Positions 2,960-11,409 of a stretch of 56,863 nt of DNA are shown here, piece after piece. The position numbers and the translations under genes were made by a program. The notes beneath the pieces are model-generated. The model ran no database searches and had not been told where the DNA came from. It was given only the letters and a program-made list of their open reading frames with translations. The DNA is from an uncultured Muribaculaceae bacterium (GTDB lineage Bacteria; Bacillota_I; Bacilli_A; RF39; UBA660). The first letter of the stretch is position 1. Each line of letters opens with the position of its first letter. The stretch covers positions 1 through 56,863 of the forward strand of contig CAYWED010000001.1 in NCBI GenBank assembly GCA_964457135.1, given 5' to 3'.

Positions 2960-4957
2960 TTAATCTAAACTTTTAATCTCGTCTATTATTTTATAATAAT
3001 TCTTGTAATTTTTAAAGTTATTTCTTATATTTTCTAATAAAAATATGTTTGAATCTTCTTTTGCTTGCATTAAAACTTTGAAATCTCTCTTTATATCTGC
3101 TATTTTAAAGTCCATGTCTCCACTTTGTTTTACTCCGAATAAGTCTCCTTCTTTTCGCATTTCAAAGTCTTTTTCGGTTATGTAAAATCCATCTGTGCTT
3201 TCTTCTAATACTTTAAGTCTTTTGTTATTGCTTGCCCCTACTAGGATACAGGTTGAATCTAGAGAGTTTCTTCCAATTCTACCACGAAGTTGATGAAGTG
3301 TTGCTAGACCAAACATTCCTGCATCAAAAATTACCATCATTGTCGCATTTGGTACATCTACTCCGACCTCTATCACAGTAGTTGATACTAGAATCTTTGT
3401 ATTTCCATTTTTAAAGTCAAGCATTACTTTTTCTTTTTCTGACTTGTCTAATTTACCATGTAATAGTCCTGTTTTAACTTTATGATTAAATGCTACATCA
3501 ATTTTATCTTTTAAGTCAGTTACAGTCGTTAAGTCACTTGTTTCACTTTCTTCAATTAATGGAGTTACTACATATATTTGATGCCCTTTTTTTATTTCTT
3601 CTAACATCATGTATAAAATGTCTTTAATTTCATTTGGATTTTTTATTATTGTTTTAATTTCTTTTCTTCCACTTGGCTTTGTTTTTATTAGTGATACATC
3701 CATATCTCCATAAACAGTTAGGGCATATGTCCTTGGAATAGGAGTTGCTGACATATATAATATATCTGGAAGATTTCCTTTGTTTCTAAGTGAGTTTCTT
3801 TGATTTACTCCAAACCTGTGTTGTTCATCTGTTATTACTAATCCTAAATTTTTAAATGTTACTTTTTCGCTAAGAAGAGCGTGTGTACCAATAAGCAAAT
3901 CTATTTCTCCATTTTTAAGTCTTTCATAAATCTCATCTTTATCTTTTCTTTTCGTACTTCCAAGTAAGACTTCTACTCTCATACCAGTTTCTGTAAGTAG
4001 TTCTTTTATATTTTCATAGTGTTGACTTGCTAATATTTCAGTAGGCGCCATTAGGGCTGTTTGGTATCCACTTAGGAAGCATATATAAGACGCAACTACA
4101 CCTACTATAGTTTTACCACTTCCTACATCTCCACATAATAGTCTATTCATTCTAACTTTACTTGTTAAATCTTTATGTATTTCTTTAATTGCTTCTTTTT
4201 GGTCTTTTGTTAATTCAAATGGAAGACTTCCTAAAAATGCTTGTATGTCTTCGATTTCACAAACTTTAGGTGTTTTTTTACTTTCTTTAGTTTTTGCATA
4301 TTTTAAGTAATTTATTTTAAACATGAATTTAAATAATTCTTCATATATTAGTTTTACTTTTGCATCTTTTATATCTTTTAAAGAAGCAGGTCTATGAATT
4401 TTCTTTAGTGCTTCACTTTTTGATAAAAATTTATATTTTTCATTAAACATTTCTGGAACATAATCATCAACTATTATGCTGTAACCTAAAGCATTATCTA
4501 TGTATTTTGATAATTGTTTATTGGTAATTCCCGATACAAGATGATATTTACTTTCTATGCTTCCTTCTTTTACAGATTCTAAAATTATATTATTTGCCGT
4601 CACTGTATTTTTTCTTTCATCATATTTTCCCATTATTGTTATTAATTTTCCAGGGGTTAAACTCCTACTTAGAAATGCACGATTATAAATTACAACGTTT
4701 ACTATTTTATTACTTGAATAAATTCTAAAACTAAGACTATTTAGTTTAGCACGAAATCTTCTTACAATTGGAACACTATCTATTTTTCCTTCTATTATAA
4801 CAGCCTCTCCATCAACTGCCTCTTTTATATCATTTAATTTATATTCAACATATTTATAAGGGTAATCTTCTAGTAAATCTTCTATACTATATATACCTAA
4901 TTTATTTAAAATAAGTTCATTTTTTTCTCCTAAACCCTTTAATGCTTTTAAATCCAT
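2960..4957 (-). CDS. recG: ATP-dependent DNA helicase RecG
   Basis: 665 aa. An N-terminal wedge/OB region precedes the SF2 helicase motifs GDVGSGKT (Walker A), DEQHRFG (motif II) and QLRGRIGR (motif VI). RBS is AAGGAGGG. Confidence 0.93.
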   Translation of the reverse strand: MDLKALKGLGEKNELILNKLGIYSIEDLLEDYPYKYVEYKLNDIKEAVDGEAVIIEGKIDSVPIVRRFRAKLNSLSFRIYSSNKIVNVVIYNRAFLSRSLTPGKLITIMGKYDERKNTVTANNIILESVKEGSIESKYHLVSGITNKQLSKYIDNALGYSIIVDDYVPEMFNEKYKFLSKSEALKKIHRPASLKDIKDAKVKLIYEELFKFMFKINYLKYAKTKESKKTPKVCEIEDIQAFLGSLPFELTKDQKEAIKEIHKDLTSKVRMNRLLCGDVGSGKTIVGVVASYICFLSGYQTALMAPTEILASQHYENIKELLTETGMRVEVLLGSTKRKDKDEIYERLKNGEIDLLIGTHALLSEKVTFKNLGLVITDEQHRFGVNQRNSLRNKGNLPDILYMSATPIPRTYALTVYGDMDVSLIKTKPSGRKEIKTIIKNPNEIKDILYMMLEEIKKGHQIYVVTPLIEESETSDLTTVTDLKDKIDVAFNHKVKTGLLHGKLDKSEKEKVMLDFKNGNTKILVSTTVIEVGVDVPNATMMVIFDAGMFGLATLHQLRGRIGRNSLDSTCILVGASNNKRLKVLEESTDGFYITEKDFEMRKEGDLFGVKQSGDMDFKIADIKRDFKVLMQAKEDSNIFLLENIRNNFKNYKNYYKIIDEIKSLD

Positions 4958-5055
4958 GACTACCCTCCTTAACTTACATTCTACTATGCGAAGATATGTT
5001 TGTCAATGAAGTTTTTGTGAAAGTTTAGAGAAAATAAAATGTTTGTTTTTTATTA

Positions 5056-5451
5056 CTAGAGCTCATTAAATATTAGTGGATTTCCATCTAATTCATCTAC
5101 TATATCTTCTAGTGATTCTCCATTTTGAATTCTCTTCTTTATGTAATTCTCTAAATCAGTTGGATTTACATTCAATATGTAAGGGTTAGAATCTATTAAA
5201 ATATTTAATGTGTCAAAACTATAAGTATATAAAGTTTTAAATAACAAAAGTATTTCCTTATTATTTGCAGATAGAAATAATGAATTACTGCTTATAATAT
5301 TCCTAATCATTCCATGTGTACAACCAATATTTTCTAGTAATATTTCTTTTTCAATTATTTCATTATTAGAAATATTTTTAATATTAGGATTTAACTCGAG
5401 CATGCTTTTTATTGTGTTTTCACTTAAGTTTAAGTTGTATAATTCTTCCAT
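5056..5451 (-). CDS. short mTERF-like repeat protein (about 3.5 degenerate units, no C-terminal module)
   Basis: 131 aa. A strong RBS AAAGGAGAA lies inside the 3' end of the upstream gene (32-nt overlap). It has degenerate 35-aa units with a central NP/SN..L pattern. Confidence 0.6.
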   Translation of the reverse strand: MEELYNLNLSENTIKSMLELNPNIKNISNNEIIEKEILLENIGCTHGMIRNIISSNSLFLSANNKEILLLFKTLYTYSFDTLNILIDSNPYILNVNPTDLENYIKKRIQNGESLEDIVDELDGNPLIFNEL

Positions 5452-6952
5452 AACTTTCTCCTTTTATATATTCTTCATAGTTATATTTTTCTAGTATTTC
5501 TTTTTTTGTTATTTGGTATATACTTTCAAATTTCTTTTGACAGGTAAATAATCTACTATAGTTTGATTCATTTATTATTATATCTTTTTCTTCAAAAAAC
5601 TTTAATCTAGCGTAACTTAAGTGTACACTTTGTAATAATATTTCAGGGTGTGTAATAATTACATTTCTTAATTCTATTTTAGTATAAAAATTAACTTTTT
5701 CTTTTATATTTTCTATACTCATTTCTAATATTCTAGGAAATGTTTTTAACATATTTAACACTTCAAATCTTGTGAATCCTAAACTTTCTAGAGTATTTGT
5801 TTTATTCTTTATTGTTTCTATACTTAAGCCAAAAATATTTGGAGAAATTGTTATTATTCTTAGTGTTTCGTCTTTTGTGAAACCTAAATTTTGTATAGCA
5901 TTAAATTTTTCTTTTAGATTGCCATTGCTTCTTAAAAATATAAATCCACATCTTTTTACTATTTTGCATATTGAAGAGTTAGATAAGCCTAAGTTTTTGA
6001 GTTCAACTATTTTATTTTTGATATTATCTATGCTTAAATTAATTATAGTAGGACTAACGAGTAATATTTGATTTATTTCTTTTTTATTTAATCCATAAAA
6101 ACTAAATAATGTGTAAATTTCATCTGATTTATTAGGAAAATTTTCTTCTTTTTCTTTATTATTTTTAGTTTCTAAACTATTGTTATAATTATATTTTTCT
6201 ATTAATTCTTTTTTTGTTATTTTATAGATTTTTTTAAATGTCTTTTCATCCCAAAATAATTTTTCATAGTTTTGCATGTTTATTTTTAAATCTAATTCGT
6301 TTTTAAAAAACTCTAATCTTGCATAAGTTAAAGAAATACTTTGCATTAAGTTTTTAGGTTTAATAATAATCATTTCTTTTAAACCTAAATTAATGTAAAA
6401 TTCAATTTTCTCTATTATTGTATTAGTGCTTAAATCAAGAAAATTTGGAAAAGACAAAATAATTTTTAATGTTTCGTCTTTAGTAAAATAATTTAGTATA
6501 GTATTTATTTTAGATTCTATTGTTTTTATGCTGTAACCTAAAATACTAGGGTTATCTTTTATTAGTTTTAATGTTTCGTCTTTTGAAAATCCTAAGTTTA
6601 TGAAGAAATTTATTTTATTATTTATAGATTTTGTGCTTTCAGTAAATACTGATAAACACTTTGATATGATTCTTAATGTAGCAGCCCCGTCAAAACCATT
6701 TGCTCTTATGTTGTCTACTTTACTCTTTATGTTTTCTACACTATTCATAAGTATGCTAGGTTTTAATTTAACAATTCTTTGTATTTGTTTTTTAGATAAG
6801 CCTAATTGATAAAGATTGGCTATTTTTTCTTGTTTATTTTCAATAGTGTGAGTTAATATTATTGGATTATCTTTAATTAACTTTGATATTTCTTTTTCAT
6901 TTAAATCTAATGATTTTAAGAAATATTCTAAATCTATATTGGTTGTTTTCAT
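5420..6952 (-). CDS. mTERF-like repeat protein, head-to-tail fusion of two complete paralogous units
   Basis: 510 aa made of 35-aa units, e.g. LGFSKDETLKLIKDNPSILGYSIKTIESKINTILN. The C-terminal module appears twice, near aa 200-258 and aa 450-500. The start overlaps the upstream stop as ATGA. Confidence 0.75.
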   Translation of the reverse strand: MKTTNIDLEYFLKSLDLNEKEISKLIKDNPIILTHTIENKQEKIANLYQLGLSKKQIQRIVKLKPSILMNSVENIKSKVDNIRANGFDGAATLRIISKCLSVFTESTKSINNKINFFINLGFSKDETLKLIKDNPSILGYSIKTIESKINTILNYFTKDETLKIILSFPNFLDLSTNTIIEKIEFYINLGLKEMIIIKPKNLMQSISLTYARLEFFKNELDLKINMQNYEKLFWDEKTFKKIYKITKKELIEKYNYNNSLETKNNKEKEENFPNKSDEIYTLFSFYGLNKKEINQILLVSPTIINLSIDNIKNKIVELKNLGLSNSSICKIVKRCGFIFLRSNGNLKEKFNAIQNLGFTKDETLRIITISPNIFGLSIETIKNKTNTLESLGFTRFEVLNMLKTFPRILEMSIENIKEKVNFYTKIELRNVIITHPEILLQSVHLSYARLKFFEEKDIIINESNYSRLFTCQKKFESIYQITKKEILEKYNYEEYIKGESYGRIIQLKLK

Positions 6953-8061
6953 AATTTTAAAGTTTTGCCCTCCTTATTATATATGTATTTTTCCATAAGT
7001 TCTCTATTAGTGACTTTATATTTTTTGGCAAATGATGCACTTCCTAAAAATAATTTTTTAAAGTTAGTCATGTCTATTTGTAAGTTTAGTTCAGTTTCAA
7101 AATACATAAGTCTTGCATAACTAAGAGTTACACTTTGAATTAAATTTTTAGGGAAAAGTGTGAAAATGCCTAATAATTCATGAGAGGCATAAAAACTTAA
7201 CTTTTCATTTAAATTTTCTATACTGAATCCAAGTACTGATGGAAAATATTCTATGATTTTTCTTATTTCTTTGTCTTCAAATCCAAAAGACTTTATAGTA
7301 TTTATTTTTTCTTTTATAGTAGTTAAACTATAACTTAATAAAGTAGGTTCTTTTTTTAATATTTCTAGTGTTTCTTCTTTACTAAAACCATAATTAATTA
7401 GAAAGTTAATTTTTTGTTTTATTGAGGCAACACTGTAACTTAATATAGTTGGACATGACAGTAAAATACTTGGAATATCTTCTTTTTTAAATCCTAAATT
7501 TATAATGTCATTTATTTTTTTATTTAATGTTTTTTTACTTAAACATAATATGGTTGGACTTATTTTTATTAATTTAATTACTTGTGGATAAGTGAAACCT
7601 AACTCTTCTATGTTTTGCATTTTATTTTTTAAATAGTCTACTCTATACGTTAGTAATGCTGGGTATGCTCTTAAGAATTTTTTTACATCAATACTCTCAA
7701 ACCCTAGATTAATCATATCTTCTATTCTTTTATTTAATGATTCTATGCTTACTCCATAAATATCTGGAAAGTGACTTGTAAAGTTTAATATTGTTGCTTT
7801 TGAAAATCCTAAATCAGTAAAATATTTTTCTTTTGAATTCATGTTTTCTTTACTAAATCCAAATAACTGAGGTGCACGAAAAGTCATGCTTATTACTTTT
7901 TCTTTTGTGTGACCTTTAGTTAGTAAATGTTCATAGATATCAATTACTTTATTATATAGGCTTTCTTCAGTATACCTTTTTAGTGCATAATGAGATAAGA
8001 TTTTTTGTGTTTGTTCTATAGAATAACCTAGTTCTAATAATAATTTTTCTACTTTATTCAT
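6949..8061 (-). CDS. mTERF-like repeat protein
   Basis: 370 aa with at least six consecutive 35-aa units, e.g. LGFKKEDIPSILLSCPTILSYSVASIKQKINFLIN and YGFSKEETLEILKKEPTLLSYSLTTIKEKINTIKS. RBS is AAAGGGGA. Confidence 0.75.
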   Translation of the reverse strand: MNKVEKLLLELGYSIEQTQKILSHYALKRYTEESLYNKVIDIYEHLLTKGHTKEKVISMTFRAPQLFGFSKENMNSKEKYFTDLGFSKATILNFTSHFPDIYGVSIESLNKRIEDMINLGFESIDVKKFLRAYPALLTYRVDYLKNKMQNIEELGFTYPQVIKLIKISPTILCLSKKTLNKKINDIINLGFKKEDIPSILLSCPTILSYSVASIKQKINFLINYGFSKEETLEILKKEPTLLSYSLTTIKEKINTIKSFGFEDKEIRKIIEYFPSVLGFSIENLNEKLSFYASHELLGIFTLFPKNLIQSVTLSYARLMYFETELNLQIDMTNFKKLFLGSASFAKKYKVTNRELMEKYIYNKEGKTLKL

Positions 8062-8082
8062 AAAAGTCCCCTTTCAAGTCTT

Positions 8083-9000
8083 TTAATTTAGTTTAAGTTG
8101 TAATTTTTGTTCGTTTTCTTTTTCTTTATATTCTTCATAATTATACATACTTAGCAATTCTTTTTTTGATATTCCATAATGACTCTCAAAAGGTTTTTGA
8201 CCATAGAATAATTTTTTATAATTACTCATATCTATAGTTACACCTTTGTCTTTAAGGAACATATATCTTGCATAACTAAGAGATATACTTTGCATTAGAT
8301 ATTTAGGACTTAGAACTGCTACTTCATGTAATCCTACTTCATCATAAAACTTTATTTTTTCTTTTATGTTTTCTATGCTTAGTCCAAATAAAGTTGGTAG
8401 TTCAGTAGTCATTTTTAATACTTCTTCTTTAGTGTATCCAAGGCTCATTAAGTCATTTATTTTGTTTGTTATGCTCTCTATGCTAATAGATAGTAATGAT
8501 GGAAAAGTAAAAATCATTTTTAGTACATCTTTCTTTGTATAGCCTACTCTTATTAAGCAATTTATTTTATCCATAATATTTTCTATGCTAAGATTGCATA
8601 ATTCAGGTGCTGATATAATCATTTTTAGCACTTGTTCTTCAGTATATCCTAGGTTGATTAGAGCTTCGATTTTTCTTTCAGTTTTTTCTAAAGCATAACT
8701 AAAAAGTGTTGGCATAGTTTTTGTTATTTTAATTATATTTAAGTTAGATAAATCTAGTTTAAGAAAATAAAAATATATTTCTATAACTTTATAATATAAT
8801 GTTTGTTCTTTTAAGTCATTTAATGGATATTTGTTTACTATTTTTTGATATTCACTATCTTTATAACTTAATTTAATAAAAAGTGTTTCTAGTTTATTTT
8901 CTTGTTCTTCTTCATATTCCTTTAAATTATAAGTATTTATTATTTCTTCTATTTCATTACTCTCATATCTTAATTTTTTTAATATTGTATTTATGTTCAT
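8083..9000 (-). CDS. mTERF-like repeat protein, first gene of the operon
   Basis: I place the start at the ATG at 9000 (MNINTILKK), which has RBS GGGGG 7 nt upstream and a consensus promoter just upstream. The longer ORF to 9108 would run through that promoter. Units include LGYTEEQVLKMIISAPELCNLSIENIMDKINCLIR. Confidence 0.75.
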   Translation of the reverse strand: MNINTILKKLRYESNEIEEIINTYNLKEYEEEQENKLETLFIKLSYKDSEYQKIVNKYPLNDLKEQTLYYKVIEIYFYFLKLDLSNLNIIKITKTMPTLFSYALEKTERKIEALINLGYTEEQVLKMIISAPELCNLSIENIMDKINCLIRVGYTKKDVLKMIFTFPSLLSISIESITNKINDLMSLGYTKEEVLKMTTELPTLFGLSIENIKEKIKFYDEVGLHEVAVLSPKYLMQSISLSYARYMFLKDKGVTIDMSNYKKLFYGQKPFESHYGISKKELLSMYNYEEYKEKENEQKLQLKLN

Positions 9001-9022
9001 AATAACCCCCAAATTGAGATGT

Positions 9023-9051
9023 ATTGTACCATAAAAAGCAAGTGATGTCAA
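9023..9051 (-). promoter_or_regulatory. sigma-A-type promoter of the mTERF-like operon
   Basis: On the minus strand: TTGACA, 17 nt, TACAAT, with an extended TG (TGgTACAAT). It lies about 20 nt upstream of the RBS of the gene starting at 9000. Confidence 0.6.
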
Positions 9052-9101
9052 AAAGTGCAAAATGGCTTTTGTGAATTTTTTGTGTAAATTTTGTAAGGCT
9101 A

Positions 9102-9130
9102 TTGACAAAATAAATATATGAGCATATTAT
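9102..9130 (+). promoter_or_regulatory. sigma-A-type promoter of the MarR-ABC operon, with a possible operator
   Basis: TTGACA (9102-9107), 17 nt, TATTAT (9125-9130). An imperfect palindrome ATATG-ag-CATAT sits in the spacer, where MarR-type autorepressors commonly bind. Confidence 0.55.
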
Positions 9131-9165
9131 GTTATAAGGCGACTATATTAAGGAGACGAAAACTC

Positions 9166-9612
9166 ATGAATAAAATTAGTGTTTTATTTGAGATTAAGAG
9201 TTTAGAGAGTATGATTGCTAGAGACTTTTTTACTAAGATTCTTGATGAAGAAAAAATTAAGGTAAATATTCCTACTCCAACTCAAATGAGAATAATAGAT
9301 TACATTTTAAAAAGTGAAAAAGATGTGGAGCAAAAAGATTTAGAGAAAGTATTTAATTTAAGAAGGGCTACTATTTCTGGAGTACTACAAACTATGGAAA
9401 AGAATAACCTTATTATTAGGACTACTTCTTTAATTGATACAAGAACTAAAGTTATTAAACTTAGTAATCAGACTAGGAGTATTTTTGAAAAAAATAAAAA
9501 AAGAATGCTAGAACTTGAAAAAGTTATAACTAAGGATATTAGTGAAGATGAACTCGAAAACTTTATTAATGTTGTAAATAAAATGAAAGAAAATATTAAA
9601 AATATTAATTAG
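9166..9612 (+). CDS. MarR-family transcriptional regulator
   Basis: Start placed at the ATG at 9166, after RBS AAGGAG. About 148 aa with a winged-helix core (..QMRIIDYIL....DLEKVFNLRRATISGVLQTMEKNNLIIR..D.R.K.I.L). Confidence 0.8.
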   Translation: MNKISVLFEIKSLESMIARDFFTKILDEEKIKVNIPTPTQMRIIDYILKSEKDVEQKDLEKVFNLRRATISGVLQTMEKNNLIIRTTSLIDTRTKVIKLSNQTRSIFEKNKKRMLELEKVITKDISEDELENFINVVNKMKENIKNIN

Positions 9613-9645
9613 AAGTTACCAATAAGTATAAGAGGAGGATAAAGT

Positions 9646-11409
9646 ATGTTTAAGTTGCTTAAAAATTTTAATAAGAAAGATTGGGCACTGGTAATAGTTA
9701 TTTTGTGTTTAGTTGTAGTTCAGGTCTGGTTAGATTTAAAGATGCCTGATTATATGAGTGCGATTACTAGACTTGTTCAAACTGAAGGAAGCGAAATGAG
9801 TGAAATCATTAAAAATGGTGGATATATGCTTTTATGCGCTTTTGGAAGTTTAATTACAGCGATTTTTACTGGTTATTTAGTTTCTGGTGTGGCTTCAACT
9901 TTTTCTATGAATGTTAGAGAAAAGTTATTTAAAAAGATTGGAAACTTATCAACTAGTGAAATTAAAGAATTTTCTACGAGTAGTTTAATTACTAGAACTA
10001 CTAATGATATTACTCAAGTAGAGATGGTTATTACAATGGGACTACAACTTATGTTAAAAGCACCTATTACTGCTGTTTGGGCTGTTTCTAAGATTCTTAA
10101 TAAAAGCTGGGAATGGAGTGCTGTTACTGGAATTTCTGTTGTAATATTACTTAGTGTTATTGGGATTTTGATGTTAATTGTTTTACCTAGATTTAAGATT
10201 GTTCAAAAGTTAACTGACAGGCTAAATAATGCTACTCGTGAAAATTTAACTGGTATTAGAGTTGTGCGTGCTTTTAATGCTGAAACATATCAAGAGGATA
10301 AATTTGATGAAGTGAATCAAAGTCTTACTAAAACTCAATTATTTAACCAAAAGATGTTTGCGATTATGCAACCAGTTATGTATTTAGTTATGTATGGACT
10401 TACTTTGAGTATTTATTTTATAGGTGCAAATTTAATTAAGGATGCTTTAATGGCTGATAAGATTACATTGTTTGGAGATATGGTAGTTTTTAGTAGTTAT
10501 GCTATGCAAGTTATTATGTCTTTCTTAATGCTTGCCATGATATTTATGATGGTTCCAAGAGCTAGTGTGTCTGCTAACAGAATTAATGAGGTATTAGATA
10601 AAGAAACTAGCATTAAGTATGGGAAGTTTAAGGGAGAGGCGAATTTAGTTGGAACCGTTGAATTTAAGAATGTGAGTTTTAAGTATCCTGATGCTGATGA
10701 GTATTTACTTAAGGATATTTCATTTAAGGCTGAACGCGGAGAGACAGTTGCATTTATAGGTTCTACTGGTAGTGGTAAGTCTACTTTAATTAATTTAATT
10801 CCAAGATTTTATGATGCAACTGATGGAGAGGTTTTAATTGATGGAGTCAATGTTAAAGATTACGAAGAAGAAGCACTTAATAATAAACTTGGCTATGTTT
10901 CTCAAAAAGCAGTTATGTTTAATGGTACTGTAAAGTCAAATGTAAGTTACGGAGATAATGGCAAGGGTAAAATAAGTGATGATAAAATTAAAGATGCCAT
11001 TAGGGTTGCTCAGGCAGAAGAATTTGTGACAAAAATGGATGATGGGTATGACTCACATATTGCTAGTGGTGGTACTAATGTAAGTGGTGGTCAAAAGCAA
11101 AGATTATCTATTGCAAGGGCTATTGCTAGAGATCCTGAAATTTATATTTTTGATGACTCTTTTTCAGCACTTGATTATAAGACTGATAGTGTTTTAAGAA
11201 AAGAGTTAAAGAAATATACAAAAGATGCAACTAGTTTGATAGTAGCACAGAGAATTGGAACTATTATGAATGCTGATAAAATCGTAGTTTTAGATAATGG
11301 AAGTGTAGCTGGAATAGGTAAACATAAAGATTTATTAAAAACATGTGAGGTATACAAGCAAATTGCTTTATCACAATTATCAGAGGAGGAATTAGAGAAT
11401 GAAAGATAA
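9646..11409 (+). CDS. ABC exporter half-transporter (permease plus NBD), degenerate-site subunit (BmrC/YheI-like)
   Basis: 587 aa. Six-TM exporter domain, Walker A GSTGSGKST, signature VSGGQKQ. Walker B is IYIFDDS (Asp in place of the catalytic Glu) and the H-loop is VAQR (Gln in place of His). Confidence 0.9.
   Translation: MFKLLKNFNKKDWALVIVILCLVVVQVWLDLKMPDYMSAITRLVQTEGSEMSEIIKNGGYMLLCAFGSLITAIFTGYLVSGVASTFSMNVREKLFKKIGNLSTSEIKEFSTSSLITRTTNDITQVEMVITMGLQLMLKAPITAVWAVSKILNKSWEWSAVTGISVVILLSVIGILMLIVLPRFKIVQKLTDRLNNATRENLTGIRVVRAFNAETYQEDKFDEVNQSLTKTQLFNQKMFAIMQPVMYLVMYGLTLSIYFIGANLIKDALMADKITLFGDMVVFSSYAMQVIMSFLMLAMIFMMVPRASVSANRINEVLDKETSIKYGKFKGEANLVGTVEFKNVSFKYPDADEYLLKDISFKAERGETVAFIGSTGSGKSTLINLIPRFYDATDGEVLIDGVNVKDYEEEALNNKLGYVSQKAVMFNGTVKSNVSYGDNGKGKISDDKIKDAIRVAQAEEFVTKMDDGYDSHIASGGTNVSGGQKQRLSIARAIARDPEIYIFDDSFSALDYKTDSVLRKELKKYTKDATSLIVAQRIGTIMNADKIVVLDNGSVAGIGKHKDLLKTCEVYKQIALSQLSEEELENER

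Follow-up and report, generated by a model that had tools for sequence, protein, structure and literature searches.

An operon of mTERF-fold repeat proteins with a conserved mini-mTERF in an AT-rich, gut-type bacterium

Organisation and expression signals of the operon

Four co-oriented genes, here called A to D, were found on the minus strand of the window, the 56,863-nt stretch of DNA that was analysed. ORF calling placed gene A at 8083-9000, gene B at 6949-8061, gene C at 5420-6952 and gene D at 5056-5451, as the original prediction had stated. The host is a very AT-rich, gut-type bacterium, and the operon lies in a dense bacterial gene order, with MarR/ABC genes on one side and recG on the other.

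A near-consensus promoter had been proposed ahead of the operon and is indeed present on the minus strand at 9051-9023 (TTGACA -35 at 9051-9046, a 17-nt spacer, and an extended -10 TG-n-TACAAT ending at 9023). It scores 11/12 plus the TG and is the top minus-strand site within 4800-9700; as a class, promoter-like sites show no enrichment in DNA this rich in A and T (42 vs. 36 ± 6 in shuffles). The divergent MarR/ABC promoter (9102-9130, plus strand) lies back to back with it. Mechanical extension takes the ORF of gene A up to a TTG at 9108. We preferred the ATG at 9000 as the start codon, because a GGGGG Shine-Dalgarno sequence is located at 9010-9006 (minus strand), the promoter lies within the TTG extension, and the homologue alignments begin at the ATG.

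Both predicted gene overlaps exist on the minus strand: an ATGA stop-start overlap joins B and C at 6949-6952, and the end of C overlaps the start of D by 32 nt at 5420-5451. In most related loci, the large gene and D share 17 nt, compared with 32 nt here. Strong ribosome binding sites had been claimed as well. A has its GGGGG, and D has a GGAG 6 nt upstream of the ATG. Since the GGAGG nearest to gene C is about 15 nt upstream of its ATG, C is probably initiated by stop-start coupling more than by a strong ribosome binding site. No intrinsic terminator was found after gene D, and recG has its own promoter downstream of D (5006-4978, minus strand, 11/12 match).

Family membership and architecture of the large proteins

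Most of the field still calls the mTERF fold organelle-only. The classically characterised mTERFs are all nuclear-encoded and organelle-targeted, which reflects where they were found and is not a property of the domain. The genes described here are not nuclear genes for organelle-targeted products; they form an operon of bacterial make, in which a sigma-70-type promoter, Shine-Dalgarno sites and gene overlaps are present.

We compared the large proteins with the Pfam profile PF02536, for which the gathering score (membership cut-off) is 23.1 bits. Protein A scored 90.5 bits (E 1.3e-25), with a match spanning model positions 40-311 of 314; B scored 154.3 bits (E 4.7e-45), and C scored 170.5 bits (E 5.5e-50) in two stretches. 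All three are thus well above the cut-off. A sequence search of the PDB recovered MTERF1, MTERF3, MTERF4 and mS93 (E about 1e-7). Recurring helices of about 10, 5 and 13 residues are seen in the model of B that was built with AlphaFold2 (pLDDT 91.8). In Foldseek, the top PDB match of this model was the MTERF1-DNA complex 5crk_O (E 7e-10, TM 0.64), followed by MTERF3 (E 9e-8) and MTERF4, and it did not match TPR, HEAT or PPR folds. The two refuting tests put forward with the original prediction thus both turned out in its favour. The profile matches and the predicted structure of B show that A, B and C are true mTERF proteins by family and fold.

Human MTERF1 (PDB 3MVA, 3N6S and the 5CRK series) shares the Pfam family and the fold with the window proteins (Foldseek E 7e-10, TM 0.58-0.65), although they are only about 18-19% identical in sequence. 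In MTERF1, the motifs are degenerate and interspersed. The human protein is encoded in the nucleus, enters mitochondria by import and works alone at a single site, whereas the window genes lie in a bacterial operon; an operon, a paralog array and a mini-partner are all lacking for MTERF1. The TALE repeat fold (RVD at 12 and 13) was also considered and was rejected: the Foldseek matches of the B model were far weaker than those to mTERFs (BurrH, E 4.8e-4, TMt 0.19; TALE, E 3.3e-3, TM about 0.2), and no TAL-effector Pfam match was found in the four proteins.

The 35-aa periodicity was confirmed in each large protein. Protein A (305 aa, pI 6.0; identical to P0012) has 4 canonical units and a C-terminal cap, and B (370 aa, pI 9.3) has 7 units and a cap. 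Protein C (510 aa, pI 9.4) has 5 + 4 units. Its N-terminal module (6167-6952, minus strand) carries 5 units and its own complete cap, with the cap HMM matching ORF residues 162-269; this module can be aligned over its full length with A, B and P0001-P0003. The C-terminal module (5420-6166, minus strand) carries 4 units and a second cap, also matched by the HMM, and then the stop codon. Judged from this arrangement of the sequence, C is a tandem fusion of two complete modules. The unit consensus in the window is LGFtKeeilKIik..PtILg.SIEnIkeKIN. The original prediction saw such a unit in every product, which is right for A, B and C, but D departs from the stated consensus as a divergent protein with 3.5 units. 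The window repeats are old and diverged, with 28-39% identity between units; the A/B/C paralogs are likewise old (34-38% identical), and no recent repeat shuffling was seen among them.

The claim of a lineage-expanded family was borne out by 467 representatives at 50% clustering with E ≤ 1e-30. In the family, the number of units per protein ranges from 1 to 11. The units share a conserved proline and a hydrophobic pattern, and the least variable positions are G2, P16 and K29 (mismatch 15%, 22% and 25%; 719 units). The bacterial-type members of the family have a median pI of 9.0; B and C, unlike A, are similarly basic.

It had also been stated that no bacterial member was characterised. This is outdated: prokaryotic mTERF-like proteins have been named pTERF and are the first reported bacterial DNA binders of this kind (PMC11417379, Nucleic Acids Res 2024). 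pTERF1 (MBQ3414883.1) binds ACTNNNAGTC with a Kd of 1.87 nM and pTERF2 binds another motif, both being sequence-specific, nanomolar dsDNA binders (PMC11417379). Like the window units, the pTERF units are 35-aa tandem units (cluster TR_35) with an mTERF motif annotation and three helices each; pTERFs have 3-11 units per protein, compared with 4, 7 and 5 + 4 in the window. In origin, period and unit number, the window proteins agree with what is described for pTERFs, an indirect likeness drawn from described features. The pTERF paper deals with single proteins and about 46 homologues, and the word "operon" is absent; the tandem paralog arrays, the double-module fusion and an acidic 131-aa partner are found here and are not described there (PMC11417379). 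The operon is therefore a richer example of bacterial mTERF-like proteins, not the first.

Gene D, a conserved mini-mTERF

Gene D (5056-5451, minus strand) encodes an acidic protein of 131 aa (pI 4.3) with 3.5 units, without the N-terminal region and without the cap. Its PF02536 score is 21.8 bits (E 1e-4), just below the cut-off of 23.1; a precomputed PF02536 match is present in most D homologues, and the D profile aligned with the large-protein profile at an hhalign probability of 97%. The AlphaFold2 model of D (pLDDT 96) matched MTERF3 with a TMq of 0.81 and MTERF1 with 0.78-0.80, and its best structural matches were mS93, MTERF3 and MTERF4 (TMq 0.62-0.81).

Homologues of D form at least 214 clusters; 107 of the best 120 are exactly 131 aa long, and they are 53-66% identical. 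A large paralog lay directly beside D in all 15 context loci and in 56 of 59 metagenome loci (~95%). In every divergence bin, D was more conserved than the cap, and the cap more than the repeats. In the register given by hhalign of D against the large-protein profile, the D positions matching the would-be contacts are nearly invariant. Four tandem mTERF-like paralogs had been predicted, which stands for A, B and C; D is not of the same kind but a separate, slowly evolving, conserved mini-mTERF that accompanies the large, fast-evolving paralogs.

D has the mTERF fold in common with MTERF4-NSUN4, MTERF3 and ciliate mS93, which bind rRNA or the ribosome, but is much smaller than MTERF3, MTERF4 and mS93. 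MTERF4 provides a precedent for an mTERF acting as the obligate partner of another protein; that partner is a methyltransferase, and none is encoded in the window operon.

Repeat variability, genomic context and possible ligands

We placed MTERF1 residues in the register of the bacterial unit: R162 falls at position 14, R169 at 21, R202, F243 and R350 at 17, R251 and Y288 at 25, and F322 at 20. R162, R202, R251 and R350 are direct base-readout residues (PMC4705650). In 719 units from 111 proteins, variability was highest at positions 14, 17 and 15, and in relatives with near-perfect repeats variation occurred only at positions 14, 15, 17, 20, 21, 23, 25 and 26. The variable positions 14, 15, 17, 20, 21 and 25 coincide with MTERF1 DNA-contact residues, and they are also the fastest-changing ones from strain to strain. 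The base-contact and base-stacking residues of MTERF1 thus fall on positions that are hypervariable in the bacterial family. For 4 distinct positions, the probability of all lying by chance among 8 of 35 is 0.0013. This coincidence and the basic pI of B and C are indirect evidence for nucleic-acid binding.

Helical solenoids often mediate protein-protein contacts, and D is acidic and A near neutral, which would suit a scaffold whose solenoids bind proteins or peptides and whose mTERF resemblance is architectural only. However, the mTERF homology is at the sequence level, beyond fold, B and C are basic, and the variable positions overlap the base-contact positions. To our knowledge, every characterised mTERF binds nucleic acid. 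DNA binding by pTERF1 and pTERF2 (PMC11417379) argues in the same direction, and we considered a scaffold role very improbable.

In strains with identical D and flanks that are 96-100% identical, the repeat region of the large partner was a local hotspot (85-91% DNA identity). Substitutions between strains showed a ~2-fold enrichment at the positions predicted to make contact (p = 6e-5), and repeat number differed in 58% of the pairs with identical D; the close strain pairs analysed were few and not independent. Such rapid strain-level change of D's large partner is a poor fit with a fixed housekeeping target. TALE and TALE-like proteins (Xanthomonas TALEs, Burkholderia BurrH/Bat) are built from helical units of 33-35 aa in tandem, in which fixed positions carry the hypervariable residues; one unit corresponds to one base step, and repeat number changes by recombination. 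The likeness to TALEs is one of working principle only, as the fold family is different, and unlike TALE effectors, the window proteins have no secretion signals and are encoded on the chromosome among housekeeping genes. The TALE-like pattern of variation is observed in relatives and not in the window operon itself, because its repeats are old and far more diverged than near-perfect TALE-like repeats.

The strain-level hotspot, the enriched contact-position substitutions, the varying repeat number, and paralog arrays that grow to 5 and to 10 or more in some genomes could also reflect a conflict, in which variable paralogs would recognise foreign DNA (phage, mobile elements) or be contingency regulators reshuffled between strains, with D as a constant effector or adaptor. 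The genomic context argues against this. The module is chromosomal and has varied housekeeping flanks, not defence islands, and contains no nuclease or other effector domain. None of the four proteins matched the PADLOC-DB v2 component models, the PHROG search of the four proteins gave no meaningful matches, and searches for the large/D module in phage, plasmid and IMG/VR sets gave none. In addition, the window paralogs are old, with no sign of recent shuffling, and the close pairs are few. We therefore regarded a conflict-driven role as improbable.

An RNA-directed role has more in its favour but still seems unlikely. The proteins would bind rRNA or other structured RNA and serve in RNA maturation or in assembling ribosomes, in the manner of MTERF3, MTERF4-NSUN4, ciliate mS93 and the plant splicing mTERFs, and D would be a conserved ribosome- or RNA-contacting subunit. 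The top structural matches of D and its housekeeping-like conservation point this way, as do neighbouring genes that work in translation or in modifying RNA: alaS-like, queA and tgt, pheS and a pseudouridine synthase in several lineages, and YebC/TACO1 in the window. However, the flanking genes differ between lineages, the full-length B model is nearest to DNA-bound MTERF1, the hypervariable positions are those of the MTERF1 base-contact residues, and if the target were a conserved rRNA, the reading face would not be expected to diversify between strains. The only bacterial relatives whose binding has been measured are nanomolar dsDNA binders (PMC11417379).

We propose, at about an even chance and on the basis of sequence, models and analogy, that the large proteins are modular, sequence-specific DNA readers, possibly roadblocks or regulators, that work with the conserved partner D. 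The operon provides four mTERF-fold solenoid modules in three proteins (one each in A and B, two in C) and the mini-mTERF D. Each 35-aa unit is predicted to form three helices, of which the second is short and the third long, with positions 14, 15, 17, 20, 21 and 25 facing the nucleic-acid groove. The string of units would read a specific sequence, most likely in dsDNA, as pTERFs do in vitro and MTERF1 does structurally, and different paralogs would have different target sites. Tight binding to the chromosome may then create a sequence-specific roadblock or regulator of transcription and possibly replication; MTERF1, a tight, sequence-specific and polar roadblock to RNA polymerase and the replisome, serves as the model (PMC7939475). 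D, which is translationally coupled to the last large gene, combines the same repeat register with a near-invariant ligand face and an acidic surface. It probably has a constant binding partner, such as a host factor or the conserved end of the large proteins, and probably modulates or couples what the large proteins do and does not itself read variable sequence. The analysis shows the family and the fold, the architecture, the pairing with D, the chromosomal location, and the variability with its correspondence to MTERF1 contacts. That the ligand is DNA and not RNA, that the proteins act as roadblocks or regulators, and that D contacts the large proteins at all is inferred. Counting against the DNA-reader proposal, RNA is also a ligand of mTERF folds, the structures nearest to D (MTERF3, MTERF4, mS93) are ribosome-associated, and protein A, at pI 6.0, is not basic. 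The TALE-like pattern, coming from relatives and not from the old, diverged repeats of the window, also counts against it, and so does the rapid strain-level change of the large partner.

A bolder extension, which we offer as speculation with little chance of being right in full, is an undescribed two-part system: TALE-like mTERF DNA readers that re-specify fast, and a mini-mTERF, acidic and constant, that links them to a host machine, for example RNA polymerase, the replisome or the ribosome. If true, an AT-rich gut Bacilli clade would gain a programmable, protein-based terminator or roadblock, and this clade would be either the prokaryotic root of organellar mTERFs or a lineage that received them from gut protists by eukaryote-to-bacterium transfer. 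In pTERFs, variation between units is limited to a few positions, suggesting programmable specificity, and the relatives found here are alike in this respect. The pTERFs come from Bacillota MAGs of gut and rumen; the related loci here are in Bacilli MAGs of 23-27% GC, and one of them, L003, is from the same ruminant MAG catalogue.

Family, fold and layout of the operon

The proteins of the operon were assigned to the mTERF family by several independent comparisons, as the original prediction had proposed. The three large proteins matched Pfam PF02536 (mTERF) with E values of 1.3e-25 (A), 4.7e-45 (B) and 5.5e-50 (C), and the small protein D, at 21.8 bits, fell just short of the 23.1 cutoff. A sequence-only search with B recovered human MTERF1, MTERF3 and MTERF4 and the Tetrahymena protein mS93, at about E 1e-7. 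The AlphaFold2 model of B (pLDDT 91.8, pTM 0.75) had DNA-bound MTERF1 as its best PDB match (E 7e-10, TMt 0.64), followed by MTERF3, MTERF4 and mS93; TALE and BurrH matched weakly. TPR, HEAT and PPR folds, which the original prediction had named as the outcome that would speak against it, were ruled out, as none was among the fold-search matches of the B model. NCBIfam, PADLOC and PHROGs gave no relevant match for the operon proteins. A, B and C were confirmed to have a 35-aa periodicity, with 4, 7 and 5+4 units, respectively. No 105-bp periodicity was found at the DNA level, indicating that the repeats are old.

The belief that no bacterial member had been characterised did not survive, since DNA binding by two prokaryotic mTERF-like proteins, pTERF1 and pTERF2, is already published (PMC11417379). 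The pTERF proteins come from Bacillota MAGs and have a 35-aa period with 3-11 units (PMC11417379, NAR 2024). pTERF1 (MBQ3414883.1) binds ACTNNNAGTC with a Kd of 1.87 nM, and the motif of pTERF2 differs (PMC11417379). It is shared features that support counting A, B and C among them. That 2024 screen reported bacterial members and their in vitro DNA binding, is silent on genomic setting and biology, and makes no mention of operons or of a small partner (PMC11417379). Publications on mTERF proteins more widely continue to place the family outside prokaryotes, among them a dedicated evolutionary study of February 2026 (PMC12977773). The operon is no longer the first bacterial mTERF case. The features that are undescribed are the paralog arrays, the double-module fusion, the conserved mini-mTERF partner and the pattern of variability on the contact face.

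The four predicted co-oriented ORFs were all present on the minus strand: A (8083-9000, 305 aa counted from the ATG), B (6949-8061, 370 aa), C (5420-6952, 510 aa) and D (5056-5451, 131 aa). The near-consensus promoter proposed for them, TTGACA-17 nt-TG-n-TACAAT (9051-9023, minus strand), was the top minus-strand match in the region (11/12 with an extended -10); promoter-like sites as a class were not enriched in this 26% GC DNA. Both predicted overlaps were found, the ATGA stop-start junction of B and C (6949-6952, minus strand) and the 32 nt shared by C and D. The strong ribosome-binding sites were borne out for A, B and D, in which a Shine-Dalgarno sequence lies 6-8 nt before the start. They were not for C, whose GGAGG is about 15 nt from its start, and C is therefore probably initiated through the ATGA overlap. 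No intrinsic terminator was found after D; recG (2960-4957), with its own 11/12 promoter, lies downstream of D.

On the plus strand, a promoter at 9102-9130 (11/12), as good as that of the operon, precedes a divergent MarR-family regulator and two ABC exporters. Since the two promoters face away from each other inside a stretch of about 110 bp, the mTERF operon could also respond to MarR binding. At gathering thresholds, Rfam gave zero RNA families, tRNA included, in the 56.9-kb window (1-56863). The exact A and D products are NCBI singletons in a collection of 15 billion proteins, and the exact B and C products are absent there; B and C were probably annotated with other starts or as pseudogenes in the source record.

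The double-module protein C and the mini-mTERF D

C is a fusion of two halves (6167-6952 and 5423-6166), and both can be aligned over their full length with A, B and three relatives. Both halves close with the same C-terminal segment, the cap, P.NLMQS..L(S/T)YAR..F...NY.KLF...F..Y.I.K.EL.EKYNY. We considered the cap as a bacteria-specific domain and rejected this. The cap corresponds to the last part of the mTERF model in Pfam, which A matches over positions 40-311 of 314, and an analogous C-terminus is present in the eukaryotic relative P0004; the cap is therefore not confined to bacteria.

D differs in kind from A, B and C. It holds 3.5 canonical units and has neither the N-terminal region nor the cap (hhalign probability 97%), and its model (pLDDT 96) reached a TMq of 0.81 to MTERF3. 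D is acidic (pI 4.3), whereas B and C have pI values of 9.3 and 9.4. Its homologues form at least 214 clusters, and a length of exactly 131 aa is shared by 107 of the best 120. Their identity to the window's D is 53-66%, whereas the best relatives of B reach only 26-32% identity to B. Furthermore, the positions of D that match the variable sites of the large proteins hardly vary, and unit position 15 is Asn in 4/4 units.

In a bioreactor metagenome, the small gene downstream of P0001 that overlaps the large mTERF gene (L004:11319-11612) encodes just 97 aa. Its product is a distant D relative, with about 30% identity and a Pfam mTERF E value of 2.8e-6, and may be a shorter partner variant in a non-gut lineage.

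Variable repeat positions and the proposed role

The large partner in prevalent gut relatives is a string of near-perfect 35-aa repeats (LGYTKEEVIKMTKSLPSIYSYSIENMKQKIEDMIA), which vary only at unit positions 14, 15, 17, 20, 21, 23, 25 and 26. Across 719 units of 111 family proteins, positions 14, 17 and 15 were the most variable within a protein, and G2, P16 and K29 were fixed. The 3D position of the variable residues was deduced from the phmmer alignment of B, through which we carried MTERF1 residues onto the unit register. R162 fell on position 14, R169 on 21, R202, F243 and R350 on 17, F322 on 20, and R251 and Y288 on 25. R162, F243 and Y288, the residues of the MTERF1 "RFY" mutant crystallised as 3MVB, are reported to stabilise the flipped bases (Yakubovskaya et al. 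2010). Direct base readout in MTERF1 is by R162, R202, R251 and R350 (PMC4705650). The coincidence of the variable positions with these contact positions points, at the level of sequence alignment, to the variable face of the bacterial repeats being the nucleic-acid-reading face of MTERF1.

The best-supported reading, which we hold about evenly balanced, takes A, B and C for modular DNA readers. They would recognise specific sequences in the manner of pTERF and MTERF1 and serve on the chromosome as roadblocks or regulators, and D, as a constant partner, would modulate or couple them. A pure protein scaffold is very improbable when set beside variation that gathers at the MTERF1 contact positions. 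We regard an RNA or ribosome role as unlikely.

The evolutionary rates were consistent with D as the constant element beside DNA readers. Conservation followed the order D, cap, repeat region in every divergence bin (903 comparisons, 43 complete pairs of D and partner), for example 0.59, 0.52 and 0.41 in one bin; the window against the others gave 0.54, 0.45 and 0.32. Among pairs with identical D, the partner differed in length by at least one repeat in 58%. Substitutions were enriched at predicted contact positions (13.8% versus 7.2%, Fisher p = 6e-5), in close equal-length orthologue pairs that are few and not independent. Re-specification between strains might instead drive a conflict or contingency role; we consider that role less likely still than one in RNA or ribosome function.

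Two gut strains with an identical D protein (L007:9000-9999 and L010:9000-9999) have a sharp local hypervariable hotspot in the partner repeats. DNA identity between them was 96-100% in the flanks and D and 85-91% in the partner repeats. The units within this partner gene are about 85% identical in DNA, so assembly at k=119-141 is unlikely to have collapsed them. Partner length ranged from 304 to 444 aa among strains that have the same D.

Distribution and genomic setting

Word-seeded homologue searches with the large proteins yielded only 5 and 11 matches, because the repeats have diverged or the candidates were flooded by low-complexity words, and an exhaustive profile search was needed. This search covered 1.84 billion representatives and gave 5625 matches at E <= 1e-3, of which 467 reached E <= 1e-30. 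The top 150 were for the most part bacterial-type and rich in K/N/I/Y/F, and a minority were long GC-rich eukaryotic proteins. A cap-only alignment scan found 3/185,579 species genomes, an underestimate because the two seed patterns were narrow. The named relatives are all MAGs with a Bacilli label, and GC was 23-27% in all bacterial loci. One contig labelled uncultured Muribaculaceae (L002, CAZALI010000001; 26.9% GC) carries the same pair of mTERF and D genes as the Bacilli MAGs, and its placement in Bacteroidota is apparently a mistake of binning or labelling.

A cap-bearing large mTERF gene lay directly before D and overlapped it in 15/15 loci reached through protein look-ups. Among the JGI metagenome loci with upstream sequence, a large gene adjoined D in 56/59 (55 directly upstream, 1 directly downstream). 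None was seen in the other 3, of which 2 end right after D. Loci held 1 to 5 modules, and a rumen-catalogue contig, L003, holds 10 or more tandem paralogs. The flanks are housekeeping genes that vary by lineage, such as cmk with alaS-like, mltG, ruvAB, queA and tgt; cinA; gmk with lon; and pheS. In the window they are recG and yebC. Relatives were absent from 50,697 phage records, 72,556 plasmid records and 2.9 million IMG/VR contigs, and we rejected a mobile-element origin on these searches.

The locus and its relatives thus add a large chromosomal mTERF family in a coherent clade of 23-27% GC. Its arrays range from 1 paralog to 10 or more, almost always with the conserved mini-partner, and its fastest-changing residues align with the base-reading ones of human MTERF1. 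The in vivo function of a bacterial mTERF, the existence of a readable recognition code usable as a compact programmable DNA binder, and the origin of the organellar family can now be tested. The bacterial genes may represent the root of the family or may have come from eukaryotes by transfer.

The largest array seen was that of L003 (L003:1-11509; JAGALD010000034, Bacilli bacterium RGIG8542, water-deer cecum). Its 10-11 head-to-tail mTERF-like genes (265-516 aa, each with its own cap) fill the whole 11.5-kb contig, which stops before a D gene could appear. One lineage has cytidylate kinase joined to the large mTERF partner in one uninterrupted 588-aa ORF, found in two independent assemblies (L014:6465-8231 and L015:6464-8230); in sister lineages the cmk and mTERF genes are adjacent and separate.

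In two GC-rich eukaryotic relatives, P0004 and P0005, the tandem mTERF repeats are near-perfect and about 36-37 aa long. The P0004 gene (L020:8001-9899) lies on a gene-sparse 1.16-Mb contig, where its neighbours are a further mTERF gene and a reverse-transcriptase ORF of 1411 aa. Common to both proteins is an N-terminal domain of about 200 aa that has no annotation and contains an EYDGYWRH motif. This domain had no Pfam match, and our impression is that it resembles a nuclease.
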